Virus record (IMG/VR): IMGVR_UViG_3300012347_000482 | Span: 117,051 to 145,656 of that record | DNA: 28,606 bases | Strand: one strand, 5' to 3' | From: a virus | Taxonomy: Duplodnaviria > Heunggongvirae > Uroviricota > Caudoviricetes | Part shown: one piece after another, positions 3,858 to 16,468 of the stretch | Numbering within the stretch: the first letter of the stretch is position 1 | Layout: each line of letters opens with the position of its first letter | Program-made: the position numbers and the translations under genes | The notes under the pieces: generated by a model | What the model was told of the DNA's origin: nothing | What the model saw: only the letters and a program-made list of their open reading frames with translations | Databases searched by the model: none

Positions 3858-3895
3858 AAAGGAAATATTTAAATGAAAAAACTCTTAATCGCATC
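3858..3895 (+). repeat. 38-bp direct repeat copy 1 (RBS + start of signal peptide)
   Basis: AAAGGAAATATTTAAATGAAAAAACTCTTAATCGCATC, identical to 4446-4483. Confidence 0.92.
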
Positions 3896-4325
3896 CGCAT
3901 TTGTGTTAGCTGCTACTGCCGCAAGTGCATTAGACTTCGGTGTTACAGCAGCTCGTGACTTCTCAGGAGTCGATCACGATTCAGTCGGCGTTACAGTAGG
4001 TCATGTTTATCCTAATGGCGTAGGCTTTTCTGCAGGGTTCGCTCGTGATGCTAACAAGTCAAGCGATCAAGATCGCTACAGCTTAATGGGTAGCTACGAT
4101 GTACTAAAATTCGGCGGCTCAACAGTTGCTGTTAAAGCCGGCGGTGTATTTATGGCAAATAGTGATGCCGAAAATGGTTCAGCTGCTGTAGTCGGTGCTG
4201 AACTTACAGTGCCGTTGACAAGCAAAATTGCAGCGACTTTTGAAGTATCGCACCAAGTTGGTCAAGATCGTGTTAGTCAAGACGATGGCAATCGTGCAAC
4301 TGTTGGTTTAAAATTCAAATTCTAA
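3873..4325 (+). CDS. Small outer-membrane beta-barrel protein (OmpA/Ail/Lom-like), copy A
   Basis: Sec signal MKKLLIASAFVLAATAASA, amphipathic beta-strands, C-terminal VGLKFKF ending in Phe (BAM signal). Confidence 0.8.
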   Translation: MKKLLIASAFVLAATAASALDFGVTAARDFSGVDHDSVGVTVGHVYPNGVGFSAGFARDANKSSDQDRYSLMGSYDVLKFGGSTVAVKAGGVFMANSDAENGSAAVVGAELTVPLTSKIAATFEVSHQVGQDRVSQDDGNRATVGLKFKF

Positions 4326-4445: not shown

Positions 4446-4483
4446 AAAGGAAATATTTAAATGAAAAAACTCTTAATCGCATC
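4446..4483 (+). repeat. 38-bp direct repeat copy 2
   Basis: Identical to 3858-3895. Confidence 0.92.
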
Positions 4484-4979
4484 AGCTCTTATTTTATCTG
4501 CATTTGCAGTATCTGCACAATCTGCTAAACCAGATATGTATGCAGAAGTAGGCTATACTCATGTTAATTTCAAAACAGACTTAGTTGAAGTTTCTCCGAC
4601 CGCTGTACGATTAGTACTAGGTAAAAATATTAACTCAGATGCGGCTATCGAAGGTCATGTATTAGTTGGATCATCGTCTGCTACGGCCGGAGCAGCTACA
4701 TACGACATCGATCCTAGCTACGGTGTTTTTCTTAAAGTGCAAGCACATGTAAGTGAATCAGTGAAAATTTATGCTCGAACAGGATGGGCACGAAGCAAAC
4801 TATCAGGTAGTGCATATGGCATTACTGTATCCGATTCTGCATCGGGCTTAGCAGGCGGTATCGGTGTAGCAGTTGCGCTAACAAAAGAATCAGAACTCTT
4901 TGTTGATGTTATGAAGTATAATACAGGTAGTGGTACTAACACCACTACTGCAACTACTGGCATTCGACTTAATTTTTAA
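4461..4979 (+). CDS. Small outer-membrane beta-barrel protein (OmpA/Ail/Lom-like), copy B
   Basis: Signal MKKLLIASALILSAFAVSA, YAEVGY first strand, C-terminal TGIRLNF. Confidence 0.82.
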   Translation: MKKLLIASALILSAFAVSAQSAKPDMYAEVGYTHVNFKTDLVEVSPTAVRLVLGKNINSDAAIEGHVLVGSSSATAGAATYDIDPSYGVFLKVQAHVSESVKIYARTGWARSKLSGSAYGITVSDSASGLAGGIGVAVALTKESELFVDVMKYNTGSGTNTTTATTGIRLNF

Positions 4980-5031
4980 TCAACGTTAGATAAAAAATAG
5001 GGGACATTGTCCCCTATTTTTACGACAGTAT
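4977..5031 (+). terminator. 55-bp direct repeat copy 2 containing stop codon and terminator
   Basis: Identical to 4323-4377. Confidence 0.92.
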
Positions 5032-5092: not shown

Positions 5093-6487
5093 ATGACCCC
5101 TGAACAAAACACTATAATAGTTAACGAATTACCATTAATACAAACATGCCCCAACTTTCTGTCAACAGATGAATGCAGCGAGCTTATTGAGTATTCAAAG
5201 GGTAAACTAGAGCAAGGCGAAGTAGTCGATGGTATAACTGGTGAATCCGTAGTCAACATTGACTACCGATCTGCATTTACTTGCGCACTCAGTAAGTCAT
5301 CAGAAATTAGTAAAAAGATATTTGACAAAGTAGAAAAATTTACAAATATAAGCTCGTTGCAATACGAAATTGCAAGTATTACACATTATGCAGTGGGTCA
5401 ACAATTTAAATTGCATCCAGACTATCTCAATCCACGAGATACACATGATAGCAAATCTATATTGCAATACGGCGGAAATCGTATCGGAACTATAATTATC
5501 TATCTTAATGAAGTAGAAAAAGGTGGAGAGACGTTATTTCCTTGGATAGGGCAATTTATTATTCCGAAAACTGGTAAGTTGGTGCATTTTAAGTACAATT
5601 ATTCTAACGCAGAACTAAACATTCGAACAGAGCACGCGAGTATGCCTGTATTAGAGGGAGAAAAGTATATTCTAACTATTTGGTTTAGAGAACAACCGGT
5701 ATCTAATATTGTCGAACATCCTTTAACATTTGTTGCCGAAGAAGCAATACGGACTAACTTAGTCGATACTAAATTTGAAATTAAGTGCGGTATTGCCGAG
5801 GATCAACAAATATTGTCAGTTGAGTTGCCTGCGAACAACGATCCTGCAAATGTTATATTGGTTCCATTTACTGGAGGGATGGATTCGTCATTATTGTTAT
5901 ATTTGATAGGTGCATTAAATAATCAGCAGTCAATACCGTATCATATTAGACCAATTTGCATTTATCTAATAGAAGCTGATGGTACACATAGTAATTTAGA
6001 AGATTACCAGGGCGTTATCGATATGTATGAATTGATTAAAAATAAAATCGGAGGCAACATTTCGTCATTGATGTTTGAACCTGGTAGATCAATACGACAC
6101 GGCATCCTTTCATATAAAGACGACAATAACCCGAGACACACAAAAACTCATAAATTTTTAAATAGAATGTATGTTTACAGTGCAGAAAATGCAATCCCGA
6201 ACGAAGATGATCCTCGATGGAAAAATGTTGGCTGGAGCCGAACGAAATCTACTATAGATTTCTGGAGACAGCCGTTTTTTAATCTTCAAAAATATCATAT
6301 TGTCGATGCCATGTTGCAATTAGGGCTAACTGATATAATAGAACATACTAGAAAGTGCCAGCATAATCATCCAACACTAGATCATGTTTGTAAATACATG
6401 CTATGTAATGAAAGACGATGGGCTTTTACTAAATTACAAAGAGAAGAAATTGGTAATAAATACTTTATAAACAAAGGAACACAATAA
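5093..6487 (+). CDS. Prolyl-4-hydroxylase-type 2OG-Fe(II) oxygenase fused to a QueC-like PP-loop domain, copy 1
   Basis: N-half: LHPD (HxD), RIGTIIIYLNEVEKGGETLFP, HASMPVLEGEKYILTIW. C-half: VPFTGGMDSS PP-loop and KCQHNH...C-KYML-CNERRWAF Cys cluster. Confidence 0.85.
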   Translation: MTPEQNTIIVNELPLIQTCPNFLSTDECSELIEYSKGKLEQGEVVDGITGESVVNIDYRSAFTCALSKSSEISKKIFDKVEKFTNISSLQYEIASITHYAVGQQFKLHPDYLNPRDTHDSKSILQYGGNRIGTIIIYLNEVEKGGETLFPWIGQFIIPKTGKLVHFKYNYSNAELNIRTEHASMPVLEGEKYILTIWFREQPVSNIVEHPLTFVAEEAIRTNLVDTKFEIKCGIAEDQQILSVELPANNDPANVILVPFTGGMDSSLLLYLIGALNNQQSIPYHIRPICIYLIEADGTHSNLEDYQGVIDMYELIKNKIGGNISSLMFEPGRSIRHGILSYKDDNNPRHTKTHKFLNRMYVYSAENAIPNEDDPRWKNVGWSRTKSTIDFWRQPFFNLQKYHIVDAMLQLGLTDIIEHTRKCQHNHPTLDHVCKYMLCNERRWAFTKLQREEIGNKYFINKGTQ

Positions 6488-6694
6488 ATGGAACTCGATA
6501 CTGTATTAGAATGGAAAGATCTAATTCCGTCTGCAGGAACTATAACTAAAACTCCGTCAACAAAATATATTGTTACCAACGGAGTAACTGGTGGTGGCAC
6601 CGGTCCAACAGATTTGAAGCCACCGAAACCAGTACCAAAAGATGACGGTGGGTCGACATTTACACCTCCTGATGACGGCGGTGAGTACGCATAA
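6488..6694 (+). CDS. Pro/Gly-rich small peptide, candidate precursor 1
   Basis: 68 aa; ATG abuts the enzyme stop; AAAGGA RBS lies within the enzyme's last codons (NKG); shares a motif with the peptide at 8245. Confidence 0.82.
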   Translation: MELDTVLEWKDLIPSAGTITKTPSTKYIVTNGVTGGGTGPTDLKPPKPVPKDDGGSTFTPPDDGGEYA

Positions 6695-6731
6695 TAATGC
6701 ATACTCTATAATATACTTGTATTAACAACAT

Positions 6732-6754
6732 CAATAGGGCCAGTGGCCCTATTG
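6732..6754 (+). terminator. Hairpin/terminator closing cassette 1
   Basis: CAATAGGGCC-AGT-GGCCCTATTG, 10-bp stem. Confidence 0.75.
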
Positions 6755-6829
6755 TTACGAGTAATTGCACTATCAAAATACAACACAGTGTAGTTTTATT
6801 TCATTAAATACAAAATATAGAACATTAAA

Positions 6830-8245
6830 ATGAACAATTACAACATTGAAACTTTGCAAGAACTCCCACTATTACAAGTAGTTAAACAATTCTTAAGCCC
6901 TGCCGAGTGCAAAGAAATTATAGAGTATAGTCAAGGTCGACTAGTTCCGAGTGAAGTTATAAGATACGAAGACGGACAACAAGTTGTAGATTATGCTATT
7001 CGATCTGCATCTACTACGTTTATTCCTACCGATAGCGAGTTAGGTCAACGAGTATTTGAAAAAGTTAGCAATTACTTAAATATCAGTAGTTCAAGATTCG
7101 AACGAATCGCAGTAACCCATTATTCGACAGGTCAAGAATTTAAACTGCATCCTGACTATTTTGCAACAGATAACAGTATCACAGGCCCTAATTCATCTGC
7201 AGAACGATGTAAATTTGGTGGTAATAGAATTTCTACTGTTATTGTGTATTTAAATACTGTAGAAGAAGGTGGCGAAACGCATTTTCCTTGGCTTGGAAAA
7301 TTTATAAAACCCGAACAAGGCGATTTAGTATTTTTTAAATACGACTATGACGATCCAGAATTAAATGTTAGAACAAATCATGCTAGCGTGCCAGTAATTG
7401 CCGGTGAAAAGTACATATTTACAATATGGATAAGAGAAACTACCATAGATCAAGAGTGTCTTGCATATAAAAACTTTACTGCAGAATCTGAATATTTAGA
7501 AAATTTAAAATCTGGAGAGTACGAACTTGAGTGCGGCCCAGCATATGATCGGCAACTATTAAAAGTAAATTTGCCAGCAAATACTGACCCGTGCAATACA
7601 ATTGTTGTACCGTATACCGGAGGAATGGACTCTTCATTAGTATTATATTTGTTAGGCGCCCTTAATAACCGACAAGTAATCCCGTATCACATTAAACCAA
7701 TATGTATATTTGAGGGGGATATGGAAAACTGGAATCCACTAGAAGATCACAGTAATGTCGAAAACATGGTTGAATTAATTCAACGTAAAATTGGCGGGAA
7801 TATTCGTCGCCCTAGTTTTATCCCGATGGAGCCAGGTACCAAGATGACTGATGCTATATTGGGATTTTATAGAAAAAATACCGCAGATCTTATACTAAAT
7901 AAATCGTTTAGATTTTTTAACCCAACATTAATTTATAGCGGAGAAAATGCATTGCCTACTGAAGACGATCATCGATGGAAGGACGTGCCTTGGTCTAGAA
8001 CACGATCGCATTCGCTAATTTGGATACAGCCGTTATTTAATTTAAAGAAATATCATATCCTTGATGCAATTATGCAATTGGGATTAGAAGATATATTAGA
8101 ACATACTTCAAAATGCCGTCATAATCACTTAAGTCTTGACGAGATTTGTCATTATATATTATGCAACGAAAGAAGATGGGCATTTACTAAATTAGGGTTA
8201 AGTGAGTTAGGTAATAAATACTTTATAAACAAAGGAGAAATATAA
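6830..8245 (+). CDS. Prolyl-4-hydroxylase-type 2OG-Fe(II) oxygenase fused to a QueC-like PP-loop domain, copy 2
   Basis: Paralog of 5093-6487: LHPD, YLNTVEEGGETHFP, HASVPVIAGEKY, VPYTGGMDSS, KCRHNH...C-HYIL-CNERRWAF. Confidence 0.85.
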   Translation: MNNYNIETLQELPLLQVVKQFLSPAECKEIIEYSQGRLVPSEVIRYEDGQQVVDYAIRSASTTFIPTDSELGQRVFEKVSNYLNISSSRFERIAVTHYSTGQEFKLHPDYFATDNSITGPNSSAERCKFGGNRISTVIVYLNTVEEGGETHFPWLGKFIKPEQGDLVFFKYDYDDPELNVRTNHASVPVIAGEKYIFTIWIRETTIDQECLAYKNFTAESEYLENLKSGEYELECGPAYDRQLLKVNLPANTDPCNTIVVPYTGGMDSSLVLYLLGALNNRQVIPYHIKPICIFEGDMENWNPLEDHSNVENMVELIQRKIGGNIRRPSFIPMEPGTKMTDAILGFYRKNTADLILNKSFRFFNPTLIYSGENALPTEDDHRWKDVPWSRTRSHSLIWIQPLFNLKKYHILDAIMQLGLEDILEHTSKCRHNHLSLDEICHYILCNERRWAFTKLGLSELGNKYFINKGEI

Positions 8246-8424
8246 TGAAAGAATCTACCATTATCGAGGAAAAATCTAATGTGTGGAGAGCATTTCCGGC
8301 CCCAGCAGCAGGTGTTATTAAATTGACAACTGCTGAGAAAGGAAAAATTTTAGCCGGAGTTTCACCTTCCCAACCTGGTGGACCTTCAAGCCCCACAGGA
8401 CCCGGTGCACCGGGCGATTTTTAA
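8245..8424 (+). CDS. Pro/Gly-rich small peptide, candidate precursor 2 (59 aa, not in ORF track)
   Basis: MKESTIIEEKSNVWRAFPAPAAGVIKLTTAEKGKILAGVSPSQPGGPSSPTGPGAPGDF*; TAATG stop/start overlap with the enzyme and AAAGGAG RBS. Confidence 0.82.
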   Translation: MKESTIIEEKSNVWRAFPAPAAGVIKLTTAEKGKILAGVSPSQPGGPSSPTGPGAPGDF

Positions 8425-8451: not shown

Positions 8452-8480
8452 TTGACCTCTAGTAATAACTGTTGTATAAT
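8452..8480 (+). promoter_or_regulatory. Sigma70-type promoter
   Basis: TTGACC-17 nt-TATAAT upstream of 8509. Confidence 0.75.
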
Positions 8481-8508: not shown

Positions 8509-8889
8509 ATGTCGATGCATATTGAAGGTCCTTGGTTGTCCACTGCAGGCAAATCAAAAACAAAGAAAAAATTTCGCAATGCTGCCGAAGCAAAGCAAGC
8601 TAGAGAATTAGAATCTAGTTGGGCAGAACTTCAAAAAAAGTGGGGCGTTGAAAATAAAGTCAATCGTACTAAATCAACTCCGCTGTCATATAAACTAACT
8701 ACTCCAGTTGGTCGAACCAACACACATGATATTCCTTCGCGCGATACTGGCAGTGTACCTTGTGTTAAAGCTCCGCCTAAAGTATATACCGGAGATAAAA
8801 TGATCGGTATTTCGCAGATGGCAAAATCAAATGCTGTTCCTGTATTTAATACTGATCATATCACAGAAATCGCAAGAATGCGTCGATAA
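8509..8889 (+). CDS. Basic phage hypothetical protein
   Basis: 126 aa behind its own promoter; C-terminal YTGDKMIGISQMAKSNAVPVF block. Confidence 0.75.
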   Translation: MSMHIEGPWLSTAGKSKTKKKFRNAAEAKQARELESSWAELQKKWGVENKVNRTKSTPLSYKLTTPVGRTNTHDIPSRDTGSVPCVKAPPKVYTGDKMIGISQMAKSNAVPVFNTDHITEIARMRR

Positions 8890-9852: not shown

Positions 9853-11253
9853 ATGCTATTAGCTTTCTTAACATTTATTTCAGGCATTGCAATTTCAGCA
9901 GTTGCCATTTATTACAGTGTACTCGGTCTTGCCGCAATTTTTGCTGCAGCCGTTGTTCCAATTATAGTCATGGGCTCTATCTTAGAAGTCAGTAAATTAG
10001 TAACCGCCTGGTGGCTTAAACGCAACTGGGGACGAGCACCATTTTTACTAAAAACATACATGCTCACGGCTGTGTTAGTCCTTATGCTTATTACTAGTAT
10101 GGGCATTTTTGGCTTTCTAAGTAAAGCACACGGAGATCAAAGTGTACCAATCGGAGACATTGCTTCGCAAGTTGCAATGCTTGACGATGACATTAAAACA
10201 CGAAAAGATAATATCGAAGTTGCACGTAAATCTCTAATTCAACTAGACAGCCAAGTTAACGAAGTACTAAGTCGAAGTACTGATCAAAATGGAGCTGAAC
10301 GAGCTGGACAAATTCGTAAACGACAAACTATCGAAAGAGAAACCCTACAGAAAGAAATTTCAATTGCACAAGCAGAAATTGTAAAATTAAATCAACAACG
10401 TGCGCCAATTGCAGGTAAACTGCGAGCAGTTGAAGCAGAAGTTGGTCCTATTAAATACATTGCACAACTAATCTACGGCGACTCTCCTGATAAGAATGTT
10501 CTAGAAAAAGCAGTAGTATGGGTTATCATCATTATTGTGTTTGTATTTGACCCGCTAGCTGTATTACTATTGCTATCAAGTCAGTTGAGCTTTCAGTGGG
10601 CATTAATTGAGCGTGAAGAAAAGAAAAAACTTTTAAAAGCATCTCTAGTTAATAAAGACCCAACACCAGTAACTCCAGTAGTACCTGTACCTGTTGTATC
10701 ACCGACTCCAGTTCCTACAGCACCCCAAGAAGTGGTTGCAACTCCTATTACGCAGGAACCAGAAGTTGTACCAACTCCTGCACCAGTCCAAGAACACATC
10801 GCAGTTGCTGATAATAACGTCATTGAGATGGTTAACGATGATAAATTATCAATCGATAAACCTAACGAATTGCCAGTTGTTGATACTGAAGAAGTTTCTA
10901 ATACTGCTGATACCGAATCTGACGACGATGTTATTATCAATAGTGCAGCCGACGAAGCAAAAATTGCAATGGCTACATGGAAATCTGAAAACCCAGATGA
11001 CAGCTTAAAACATCAACGTATCTTGTTTAAACAAGGCTTAATTGACAAACTTCCATGGGAAGAATCACTTAAGCCAGTAGCAGACGAAGAAAACGAAGCT
11101 GCTATCGAAGCTGCCAAATGGGCGCAAGAACAACTCGACTCGTCTAAAAAAAAAGTAAATAGTCCTAAAACTAAATCAATTTCGTACATACAAAATGCCG
11201 AACAGTCAAATGACACAATTTGGCAACGTGTTAAGAAATCTAAAGGTGAATAA
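9853..11253 (+). CDS. Membrane protein: N-terminal TM helices, coiled coil, fourth TM, Pro/Val-rich linker, acidic tail
   Basis: Three hydrophobic segments, a heptad-like region, WVIIIIVFVFDPLAVLLLL, then PTPVTPVVPVPVVSPTPVPTAP. Confidence 0.8.
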   Translation: MLLAFLTFISGIAISAVAIYYSVLGLAAIFAAAVVPIIVMGSILEVSKLVTAWWLKRNWGRAPFLLKTYMLTAVLVLMLITSMGIFGFLSKAHGDQSVPIGDIASQVAMLDDDIKTRKDNIEVARKSLIQLDSQVNEVLSRSTDQNGAERAGQIRKRQTIERETLQKEISIAQAEIVKLNQQRAPIAGKLRAVEAEVGPIKYIAQLIYGDSPDKNVLEKAVVWVIIIIVFVFDPLAVLLLLSSQLSFQWALIEREEKKKLLKASLVNKDPTPVTPVVPVPVVSPTPVPTAPQEVVATPITQEPEVVPTPAPVQEHIAVADNNVIEMVNDDKLSIDKPNELPVVDTEEVSNTADTESDDDVIINSAADEAKIAMATWKSENPDDSLKHQRILFKQGLIDKLPWEESLKPVADEENEAAIEAAKWAQEQLDSSKKKVNSPKTKSISYIQNAEQSNDTIWQRVKKSKGE

Positions 11254-15249: not shown

Positions 15250-15795
15250 ATGAGCTTAAAAGAAATTACCAAAGATTTACATCACGAAGCAGAAACAACT
15301 CAATTTGCTAAACTCCTACTAAGTGGGAAGATTAGCAAAGAAGATTATGCAAACTACTTATATCAACTTTTGCTAGTATATCCGTTAATCGAAAATGGTA
15401 ATAAATTGCTAGGAAACTTAACTAACTTAGCCGGAATTGAAAGATCGGCTGCGATTTTAGATGATTTTGTAGAAATTGCAGGAAACTCGTATACAGCTAC
15501 ATGGCTACCGACTACAATTTCATATCATAACTATTTGTTAGAATTAATAAACGATCCTAGCAGACGACATTTAATCAAAGCGCATATGTATTGTCGACAT
15601 ATGGGAGACTTGTATGGCGGTCAAATTATTAAAAAACAAGTTGCAAGTATTAGCTCTGGTAACTTTTACATATTTAAAAATGCAGAAGCATTGCGAGCTG
15701 CTATTCGATCAGAACTAACTGACGACTTAGGCGATGAAGCTAAAATTGCGTTTGAATGGGCAATTAAAATGATGAAAGAGTTGTATAATGAGTAA
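15250..15795 (+). CDS. Heme oxygenase (biliverdin-forming)
   Basis: LKEITKDLHHEAE (proximal His) and AHMYCRHMGDLYGGQII distal-helix motif. Confidence 0.9.
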   Translation: MSLKEITKDLHHEAETTQFAKLLLSGKISKEDYANYLYQLLLVYPLIENGNKLLGNLTNLAGIERSAAILDDFVEIAGNSYTATWLPTTISYHNYLLELINDPSRRHLIKAHMYCRHMGDLYGGQIIKKQVASISSGNFYIFKNAEALRAAIRSELTDDLGDEAKIAFEWAIKMMKELYNE

Positions 15796-16468
15796 TGTTT
15801 GGGATACGCTAATAGAAATTCGAGATATGTTTATTAGCGAGTTTAATAATACTGGTACCGAAGTGTATGAATCGGGTATGGAACAGTTTAATAAAGACAA
15901 CTGGATTAATCGTACATGGGAGTCAACGTCTTACAGACGTGCGCATTTAGATGTAGTAGATGCTCGATCATCTAAAGGGTTATTAATGATGCATTGCTGT
16001 ATCTTCCCACATACACATAATTCTGCTCCTATCTTTGGGTTTGATATTATTGCTGGCAAGAATAAAATTACTGGTTGCTTTTATGACTACAGTCCTACAA
16101 CAGATAAAAATCATCCACTATGCGAATGGTTTGCATACGAAGCAAGCCAGTTAGAATGGATTAAATCTCGTAAGCTGCCAGATTGGGCAACTAGAATTTT
16201 TAGCAATAGCATCATTGCTGCAGGCAATGTTAGCAAAGAAGAAGAGTTAGAACAAATTCTTGCTATGGCAAAAGAAGGAATTTCTGTATACTTAACTAGT
16301 GTTGGCGATACTAATAATGTCATAGAGGATTGTACCAACGAACAAAATTACTACTGCGAAAATCAAAAACAAAATCCACATACTGCAAAAGTTATGATTA
16401 GTTTAGGACTTAGCGAAGTTGATGTACACTCTTTTGTACAAGACTGTTTATTTCCAGAGATTAAATAA
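15788..16468 (+). CDS. Ferredoxin-dependent bilin reductase (PcyA/PcyX-like)
   Basis: RRAHLDVV, MMHCCIFP (His), PIFGFD (Asp), DYSP, PDWATRIFS, YCENQKQNPHT; overlaps the heme oxygenase gene. Confidence 0.85.
   Translation: MSNVWDTLIEIRDMFISEFNNTGTEVYESGMEQFNKDNWINRTWESTSYRRAHLDVVDARSSKGLLMMHCCIFPHTHNSAPIFGFDIIAGKNKITGCFYDYSPTTDKNHPLCEWFAYEASQLEWIKSRKLPDWATRIFSNSIIAAGNVSKEEELEQILAMAKEGISVYLTSVGDTNNVIEDCTNEQNYYCENQKQNPHTAKVMISLGLSEVDVHSFVQDCLFPEIK

Follow-up and report, generated by a model that had tools for sequence, protein, structure and literature searches.

Tandem hydroxylase and PP-loop fusion enzymes with adjoining Pro/Gly-rich peptides in an aquatic phage: candidate cassettes for the maturation of ribosomal peptides

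Between positions 5093 and 8424 of a 28,606-nucleotide stretch of viral DNA (in the following the window; positions 117,051 to 145,656 of the IMG/VR record IMGVR_UViG_3300012347_000482, a 145.6-kb record with an estimated completeness of 41%) two large enzyme genes are each directly followed by a short Pro/Gly-rich open reading frame (ORF), and the locus raises the question whether each enzyme modifies the small peptide encoded next to it, and by what chemistry. Enzyme and adjacent peptide are very likely an enzyme-substrate pair, and on balance each unit can be regarded as a self-contained, phage-encoded peptide maturation cassette, resembling those for peptides that are made by the ribosome and modified after translation (RiPPs).

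Enzyme A (464 aa, positions 5093–6487, like all genes of the two units on the plus strand) is a fusion of a prolyl 4-hydroxylase (P4H) domain, residues 1–210 (5093–5722; Pfam PF13640 at 1.4e-10 and Foldseek matches), with a PP-loop ATP pyrophosphatase domain, residues 215–464 (5735–6484), the latter delimited by the family alignment, the AlphaFold2 (AF2) model and fold matches. It is followed by the putative precursor peptide A (68 aa, 6488–6694), which by comparison within the family consists of a leader, residues 1–32 (6488–6583), and a core, residues 33–68 (6584–6691). Enzyme B (471 aa, 6830–8245) has the same two domains according to its ORF, Pfam and BLASTP matches, and is followed by the putative precursor peptide B (59 aa, 8245–8424) with a leader, residues 1–38 (8245–8358), and a core, residues 39–59 (8359–8421). 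The two enzymes are paralogues with 53% identity over the full length (BLASTP 3e-177), and the two peptides are weakly alike (E 0.002). The TAA stop codon of enzyme A is followed without a gap by the ATG of peptide A, and the junction between enzyme B and peptide B is a TAATG overlap, indicating that each peptide ORF should be translationally coupled to its enzyme. Both ribosomal binding sites are located within the terminal N-K-G codons of the enzymes, AAAGGA at 6473–6478 and AAAGGAG at 8231–8237. The two tandem units and the position of these binding sites had been described in an initial annotation made from the sequence alone, and both descriptions are borne out.

Near-full-length relatives of the enzymes are rare, about 47 among 5.8 billion protein clusters, and a search with the C-terminal domain gave 79 representatives (of 1.84 billion), for 23 of which E is <=1e-30. 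All come from metagenomes or IMG/VR viral contigs, and no relative was found in reference prokaryote genomes with the query P0017, by a search route that detects close relatives only. A peptide with leader and core is present on the same strand downstream of the enzyme in 21 of the 21 related loci with flanking DNA, with a start that overlaps the enzyme stop or lies within about 40 nt of it, usually overlapping or a few bases away; in locus L001 the peptide ORF (7475–7741) had been missed by the source annotation. The leader carries the motif [LI]P-x-x-G-x-[IV], or roughly so, with a nearly invariant Gly, and a junction Gly follows at a median of 15 residues past the motif (range mostly 14–19), after which the variable core typically starts with G-[VP]-[SA]-P and continues with P-x-x or Gly-rich repeats. 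Position, motif and spacing are kept across enzymes of 30–80% identity, and a scan for the leader-plus-core pattern among the 1,514 ORFs of at least 25 aa in the 145.6-kb record found the two window peptides only. The homologous peptide in every locus together with this genome-wide control argues that the small ORFs are not chance ORFs. Distant phage QueC-like proteins of about 210 aa (L013–L027, L050–L066) have no downstream Pro/Gly peptide, and the pairing is thus specific to the closer family. The initial annotation had expected homologues to carry an adjacent peptide and had paired each enzyme with a cognate peptide; the first is found in all loci with downstream sequence, and the second agrees with the conserved leader, the junction Gly and the variable core across loci.

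Residues 1–210 are predicted, by profile and by structure model, to be a collagen-type peptidyl prolyl 4-hydroxylase. The Pfam family 2OG-FeII_Oxy_3 (PF13640) matches enzymes A and B with 42.5 and 46.5 bits respectively (cut-off 27), and the site for iron and 2-oxoglutarate (2OG) is intact, with H108-x-D110...H181 and the basic 2OG-binding K191 in both enzymes. The AF2 model of enzyme A has a mean predicted local distance difference test (pLDDT) score of 91 and a predicted template-modeling (pTM) score of 0.87, and in Foldseek searches its N-terminal domain matches 3itq (P4H of B. anthracis, 34% identity, TM-score by target 0.78), 3gze (P4H of Chlamydomonas with (Ser-Pro)5, 0.84), 5c5t (vCPH of PBCV-1, a chlorella-virus collagen hydroxylase) and 5v7y, the whole set with E-values from 1e-19 to 1e-12 and TM-scores by target of 0.75–0.84. 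The collagen- and plant-type P4Hs (3itq, 3gze Cr-P4H-1, 5c5t) have the fold and the HxD...H/Lys 2OG/Fe site in common with the domain described here, and the known ones prefer Pro-rich repeat peptides that resemble the cores of this family. Unlike them, the phage domain is fused to a PP-loop domain that apparently supplies substrate docking, and its presumed substrate is a dedicated adjoining micropeptide and not a collagen-like or cell-wall protein. A tblastn search of phage records found stand-alone hydroxylases only and no fusion.

The composition of the cores follows the state of the hydroxylase. The median fraction of Pro in the core is 0.28 where the hydroxylase is intact (n=18) and 0.03 where it has lost its iron ligands or is missing altogether (n=6), a difference with p=0.003 in a Mann-Whitney test that counts sequences and not events, the latter being about two independent losses of the hydroxylase. 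In a clade of enzyme-peptide fusions (P0042, P0044–46 and P0071–72) the iron ligands are lost (H108 to R or Q, H181 to Y) with the P-loop and the Zn residues kept, and the cores are Gly/Asp-rich and nearly Pro-free, and in stand-alone PP-loop proteins, which have no hydroxylase, the cores are Gly-only. The PP-loop and the Zn residues are intact in all members with a lost or absent hydroxylase. From homology and from this covariation it is likely that the hydroxylase hydroxylates Pro residues of the core, and the modification of the enzyme's own peptide proposed in the initial annotation is upheld to this extent, by inference from the fold matches, the covariation and the complex model described below.

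The PP-loop domain is less easily placed. Folded alone, residues 215–464 give a Rossmann-like PP-loop fold with an N-terminal P-loop (pLDDT 92), and the scores against known folds are effectively tied, with Z 11.2 for QueC (3bl5), 10.8 for TilS, 10.8 for LarE, 10.4 for NcsA and 10.2 for Cap9 (9nto), and Foldseek E-values of only about 1e-5; with equal scores for QueC, TilS, LarE and NcsA, the fold does not single out QueC. The Pfam model of QueC (PF06508) matches enzyme A with 14.1 bits, under the cut-off of 22 and over the last 55 residues only, and does not match enzyme B, and a search of the PDB with the family profile gave nothing significant. The P-loop of the SGGxDS type is present as TGGMDSS in both enzymes (residues 260–266 of enzyme A), with G262 and S265 invariant in 43 sequences, and further landmarks of enzyme A are a beta-hairpin (223–245), LPAN (245–248), K400/H402/D405, and a probable Zn site C422-x3-H426-x6-C433-x4-C438 that is followed by ERRW. 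Invariant in the family are the P-loop T/S-G-G-x-D-S, N276, P282-Y283, K400, H426, C433, C438 and R441-R442-W443, near-invariant (>=90%) are H402, D405 and E440, and C422 is present in most members. The hallmarks of QueC are a C-x8-C-x2-C-x2-C zinc motif and the substrate motifs YxQxHxxE, VPxRN and YPDC (PMC13329287). Neither these three motifs nor the four-Cys zinc motif is found in the family alignment, where the metal site reads C-x3-H-x6-C-x4-C instead, and the Atlas neighbours of the domain are virus-only QueC-like clusters. Within the PP-loop superfamily we place the domain in a new branch, specific to viruses, that has a metal knuckle like that of QueC; it is not QueC. Of the domain calls made earlier, the hydroxylase, above its Pfam cut-off, and the TGGMDSS PP-loop fold stand, whereas the likeness to QueC falls below the cut-off of the model and lacks the motifs.

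QueC, Cap9 of the type IV CBASS (cyclic oligonucleotide-based antiphage signalling system) and QatC of QatABCD have the PP-loop fold and a C-terminal metal-binding knuckle, as here. Cap9 and QatC are examples of the QueC-family scaffold working on the flexible tail of a protein partner, and both act on an N-terminal Gly; unlike their targets, the N-terminus of the phage peptides can be fused to the enzyme. Lasso peptide cyclases, which are of the AsnB type, adenylate a carboxylate at the expense of ATP to form an amide, guided by the leader of a small precursor. The AsnB-type PP-loop ligase CmoY of phages joins a carboxylate to an amine on DNA (PMC12783734). The enzymes described here differ from the AsnB type in that PF00733 (Asn_synthase) gives no match at E up to 1 and that no CmoA or CmoX partner is present, and from lasso cyclases also in that many of the cores offer no side chain of Asp or Glu for activation. 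By these comparisons the fusion protein can be assigned to two groups only, the hydroxylase family and the PP-loop superfamily, and belongs to neither QueC nor AsnB.

A model of the complex between enzyme A and peptide A suggests how the two domains might share one substrate. The complex scored 0.82, 0.82 and 0.86, and three controls all scored 0.00; a mark of 0.82 is reached by 58 of 80 solved complexes and by 2 of 110 mismatched pairs, and the runs, made with custom unpaired alignments, had at least 35% of the contacts in common and a partner pLDDT of at least 49. In the model the best-defined contacts pair peptide residues 17–23 with enzyme residues 223–230, the first strand of the hairpin with which the PP-loop domain begins, and further contacts involve the invariant LPAN (246–250) and the helix 271–278. 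Peptide residues 24–39 enter the hydroxylase site along enzyme residues 105–110, 126–128, 172–180 and 195–199, touching H108 and D110. From the model we infer that the leader would dock on this opening beta-hairpin of the PP-loop domain and place the beginning of the core in the hydroxylase site. Two relatives bear on this. Locus L077 (217–2048) has an intact stand-alone PP-loop gene and then a hydroxylase fused to a PP-loop-like domain that lacks a P-loop, and P0068 (828 aa) consists of two copies of the fusion, head to tail, with the first P-loop degenerate; in both, the P-loop of the copy fused to the hydroxylase is lost and its hairpin and L[PS]AN remain, consistent with a role of the PP-loop domain in docking.

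The core is presented in three ways within the family, by a plain stop codon as in the window, by a Hint domain directly after the core, or by in-frame fusion to the enzyme. A Hint domain is found in L037, L068 and L070, in L044 and L046–48, where the PP-loop gene stands alone, and in P0065, an all-in-one chain of hydroxylase, PP-loop domain, peptide and Hint; the Hint of L068 matches Pfam Hom_end_hint with 39.9 bits (cut-off 32.1). Cys1 and the His of the block-B motif TxxH are invariant in 8 sequences and there is neither a C-terminal Asn nor a C-extein, so that only N-terminal cleavage, by way of a thioester, is expected. The Hint junctions ...PSGY|C and ...GPIT|C coincide with the free peptide ends ...VSTY-stop and ...PVGY-stop. 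No Hint domain is present in the window, and none was found in the 41% complete 145.6-kb record, where the positive control for Hint matched nowhere and the search is uninformative on absence. Leader and core are fused in frame to the C-terminus of the enzyme in P0021, in the clade of P0042, P0044–46 and P0071–72, and also in P0065, and by sequence comparison this fusion has at least two origins, one in P0021 and one in the clade. These Hint domains have Cys1 and the TxxH His in common with Hedgehog and bacterial intein-like Hint domains, and Hedgehog Hint domains transfer their N-terminal cargo to nucleophiles. The cargo here differs in being a Pro- or Gly-rich core of 11–16 residues preceded by a leader, the gene is always coupled to a PP-loop enzyme, and the Hint is interchangeable with a plain stop codon. 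In L044, L046, L047 and L048, which have no hydroxylase, the gene after the PP-loop gene encodes a Gly-core-Hint protein that ends in a hydrophobic helix at its C-terminus, and the next one a conserved 254-aa protein; the 254-aa protein has no match in Pfam or Atlas.

The cores differ also between closely related strains. A related phage contig (L067) has the same two-unit tandem and the same downstream gene as the window, and the identity to the window is 76% for the enzyme, 71% for the leader and 44% for the core. In contigs from two independent studies peptide B has the leader of the window and diverges at position 8366, just after GVSP, where a replacement core reads PGPPGGGGSA. These comparisons indicate that the core evolves faster than the leader or the enzyme, and the diverging cores noted in the initial annotation are seen again between strains. 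The fast turnover of the core suggests that the product targets something conflict-related. The second peptide of L067 (2891–3232) is 113 aa long and contains two leader-junction-core modules (…YVITDGVSP… and …YVITNGVGGGG…), and may be a multi-core precursor.

A scheme that joins these observations would run as follows. The small gene would encode a precursor with an N-terminal leader and, about 15 residues on and after the conserved Gly, a variable Pro/Gly core; the leader would be added as a beta-strand to the hairpin that opens the PP-loop domain, and the docked leader would feed the start of the core to the fused collagen-type prolyl 4-hydroxylase. After hydroxylation of the core prolines by this domain the PP-loop domain would use ATP for a second modification, for which we would first guess that the alpha-carboxylate at the peptide's C-terminus is adenylated and then amidated, dehydrated to a nitrile, or ligated to a nucleophile. 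Asp, Glu and Lys are all missing from ten cores, which leaves the C-terminal alpha-carboxylate as the only carboxylate common to all precursors; the blocked N-terminus of the peptide in the enzyme fusions argues against N-terminal chemistry of the Cap9/QatC type; and the C-terminus of the peptide is always precisely set, by a stop codon or by Cys1 of the Hint. These three points together favour the C-terminus, and that the PP-loop domain activates the C-terminal carboxylate is a tentative proposal based on this logic. The full scheme, a new phage-restricted class of ribosomal peptides with a C-terminus set by a stop codon or a Hint, where the PP-loop domain makes an amide or nitrile or performs a ligation after the hydroxylase has decorated the core, is possible but, taken as a whole, less likely than not.

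Several observations weigh against this scheme. The complex model has no confident contact for peptide residues 40–68 or for the P-loop, the alignments behind it were unpaired, and the fold of the peptide itself is predicted with little certainty (pLDDT about 50). The covariation of hydroxylase and Pro corresponds to only about two independent losses, L006 has an intact hydroxylase and an almost Pro-free peptide, and in peptide A the first Pro of the core is 7 residues past the junction Gly and not 3. The members linked to a Hint already gain a C-terminal thioester and yet have an intact PP-loop, although this can be reconciled with C-terminal activation if the thioester is first hydrolysed or ammonolysed. 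The junction Gly and its spacing persist in members without hydroxylase, and the PP-loop domain might instead act at this Gly. Neither a leader peptidase nor an exporter was found nearby.

Other explanations of the pair use many of the same facts. The peptide could be a tag or handle whose C-terminus is joined by the PP-loop domain or the Hint thioester to an amine or hydroxyl of a macromolecule, be it a protein of the phage or of the host, the cell envelope or a modified base in DNA, in the manner of ubiquitin-like tagging or of the DNA ligation by CmoY. In-frame fusions of enzyme and peptide would be more readily understood if no small product were set free from the tail, Hint domains pass N-terminal cargo to nucleophiles as in Hedgehog, QueC-family Cap9 and QatC modify proteins, and in Yoloswag, a phage of Erwinia, a CmoA-like gene adjoins the separate genes of a PP-loop protein, a (DPA)n peptide and a hydroxylase; the joining of a carboxylate to a DNA amine by the phage AsnB-type CmoY is also a precedent (PMC12783734). 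However, no acceptor can be named, none of the 21 loci has an adjoining C5-methylase, CmoA or DpdA-like gene, and hypervariable cores would be unusual in a tag, so that tagging is considered unlikely. TGT, QueD and FolE are also absent from the 145.6-kb record, which at 41% completeness is no evidence of absence from the whole genome. It is quite unlikely that the peptide serves as a reusable scaffold or carrier, to which a small unit is added and tailored at the C-terminus before a small molecule is cut off. The scaffold peptides of pearlin-type pathways work in this way, by C-terminal addition, tailoring and release of a small molecule, and the precise C-terminus, the tolerated enzyme-peptide fusion and the leader-docking model would agree with such a function, as would the fact that the complex model places no part of the peptide beyond the leader and the start of the core with confidence; but the covariation of hydroxylase and Pro and the fast-changing cores point to the core as the product, and neither a protease nor an aminoacyl-transfer enzyme is conserved nearby.

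The peptide might also be a regulatory or adaptor subunit on the hairpin of an enzyme that modifies host proteins of the EF-Tu kind, or a nucleotide such as 7-deazaguanine. Bacterial hydroxylases of this fold hydroxylate EF-Tu (5v7y and 4iw3 are among the fold matches), the folds nearest to the C-terminal domain are those of nucleotide and tRNA enzymes, and Pro-rich linkers occur in other proteins of the genome. An adaptor is nevertheless not expected to have a hypervariable tail, ends defined by a Hint, and a Pro content that tracks the integrity of the hydroxylase, and with the canonical substrate and Zn motifs of QueC absent this explanation is highly unlikely. That the small ORFs arise by chance next to ordinary auxiliary oxygenases has their small size and low-complexity composition in its favour and nothing more; it is refuted by the synteny survey, with conserved position, leader motif and spacing and with the genome-wide pattern control, and has practically no weight. 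A cassette in which the enzyme matures its own peptide is the reading that we prefer.

Among cultured phages the best matches to the N-terminal domain are the hydroxylases of Erwinia phages Yoloswag and Y3 and of Salmonella phage Sen-NF (28–32% identity), and Sen-NF has both PP-loop and hydroxylase genes. In Yoloswag (L073, 2832–4636) a 291-aa AsnB/QueC-like PP-loop gene, a 44-aa (DPA)n peptide and then a prolyl-hydroxylase-type oxygenase adjoin the CmoA-like gene, which is annotated as a tRNA methyltransferase. The trio has the same three parts as the cassettes of the window, but as separate genes in another order and with an acidic repeat peptide that lacks the leader motif of the window family, and the Yoloswag PP-loop protein is alignable to the family at the P-loop only (hhalign probability 12%). 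As in RiPP pathways, the cassettes would combine a precursor, leader docking and tailoring, here predicted from sequence and models. The statement in the initial annotation that no phage system of this architecture has been described still holds for the literature searched, which included a survey of the QueC family, a jumbo-phage survey and a phage RiPP mining study and did not extend to subscription journals: no published fusion of a hydroxylase and a PP-loop domain with a cognate peptide was found. To our knowledge, ribosomal peptide natural-product pathways from lytic phages are few, and none has this set of enzymes. The finding is real, conserved and undescribed; the initial annotation is right in outline and partly supported, and the picture is changed by the Hint-linked and fused precursors and by the docking of the leader on the PP-loop domain.

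Terminator-like hairpins frame each enzyme-peptide pair as a unit of its own. A G+C hairpin with a T run (4997–5021, plus strand), read from the sequence as the terminator of the preceding outer-membrane protein gene, is located upstream of unit A, a sequence scan found a terminator-like hairpin with a 10-bp stem after peptide A (6732–6754), and a GC hairpin (8401–8414) with a T run, together spanning 8401–8424 on the plus strand, overlaps the end of peptide B. A scan for sigma-70 promoters gave nothing above shuffled sequences, and an alignment of the two upstream regions was uninformative. A near-consensus sigma-70 promoter (8452–8480; TTGACC, 17 nt, TATAAT) is located right after the terminator of peptide B and precedes a conserved gene of 126 aa (8509–8889, phrog_27048), the gene that is also found downstream of the L067 tandem.

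The genes around the cassettes are those of a large aquatic myovirus-like phage, and encode a virion structural or tail-fibre protein, an exonuclease, a clamp-loader-like ATPase, a SleB-type cell-wall hydrolase, two outer-membrane beta-barrel proteins, and a heme oxygenase with a bilin reductase. The beta-barrel genes, with signal peptides, are located directly upstream of the cassettes (3873–4325 and 4461–4979), with matches to OMP_b-brl (1.4e-17) and weakly to YfaZ, and both products begin with MKKLLIASA. The genes for the heme oxygenase and the ferredoxin-dependent bilin reductase adjoin (15250–16468), an auxiliary pair typical of aquatic phages. A 261-kb contig also carries the same protein as the window record. 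DNA nearly identical to the window is present in pond, freshwater, aquatic, groundwater and wetland metagenomes (13 studies), and a megablast search with 25 kb of the window found nothing similar among 50,697 phage records. A multi-pass membrane protein of 466 aa (9853–11253) has a Pro/Thr/Val-rich linker around PTPVTPVVPVPVVSPTPVPTAP that is closely like the cores of peptides elsewhere in the family, for example in L069 and L037, and this protein might be a further substrate of the hydroxylases. Pro-rich runs are found in two more ORFs of the genome record (G000, 70265–72478 and 80065–81204).

No conserved protease, aminoacyl-transfer enzyme or transporter was seen among the neighbours of the related loci, where other genes recur. 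A conserved protein of about 235 aa with an N-terminal PRT[KR]STA is encoded directly upstream of the enzyme in L037 (1760–2494), L068 (1120–1839) and L075 (17–715), and twice a few genes downstream of the enzyme in L001 (10268–10948 and 10933–11616), and may be a third component of a sub-clade. Its N-terminal motif had suggested a sulfotransferase, which is unsupported, as searches of Pfam and with a profile against the PDB were empty; in L068 a gene with an adenosine phosphosulfate (APS) kinase domain adjoins it. Large genes for radical S-adenosylmethionine enzymes of the B12-binding type are located within a few genes of the cassette in L001 (7997–9493) and L069 (8236–9392), and also in L008 and L042, there on the minus strand, and a methyltransferase is encoded directly upstream of the cassette in L003, L007 and L043.

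The cassettes probably make a new kind of phage-made modified peptide. They constitute a compact two-gene system that is easily expressed, for finding new ATP-dependent peptide chemistry, and a hydroxylase to which the substrate is supplied by the neighbouring domain. The family also offers a natural experiment, with stop codon, Hint domain and in-frame fusion to the enzyme as interchangeable means of presenting one substrate. Should the PP-loop domain act on the C-terminus of the peptide, it would be the first PP-loop/QueC-type enzyme to do so, and the Hint-linked members would be the first Hint-coupled RiPPs. Cores that are hypervariable at the level of strains would point to a role in the conflict between phage and host, and if the products target functions of the host or of competitors they would represent a new class of phage effectors.

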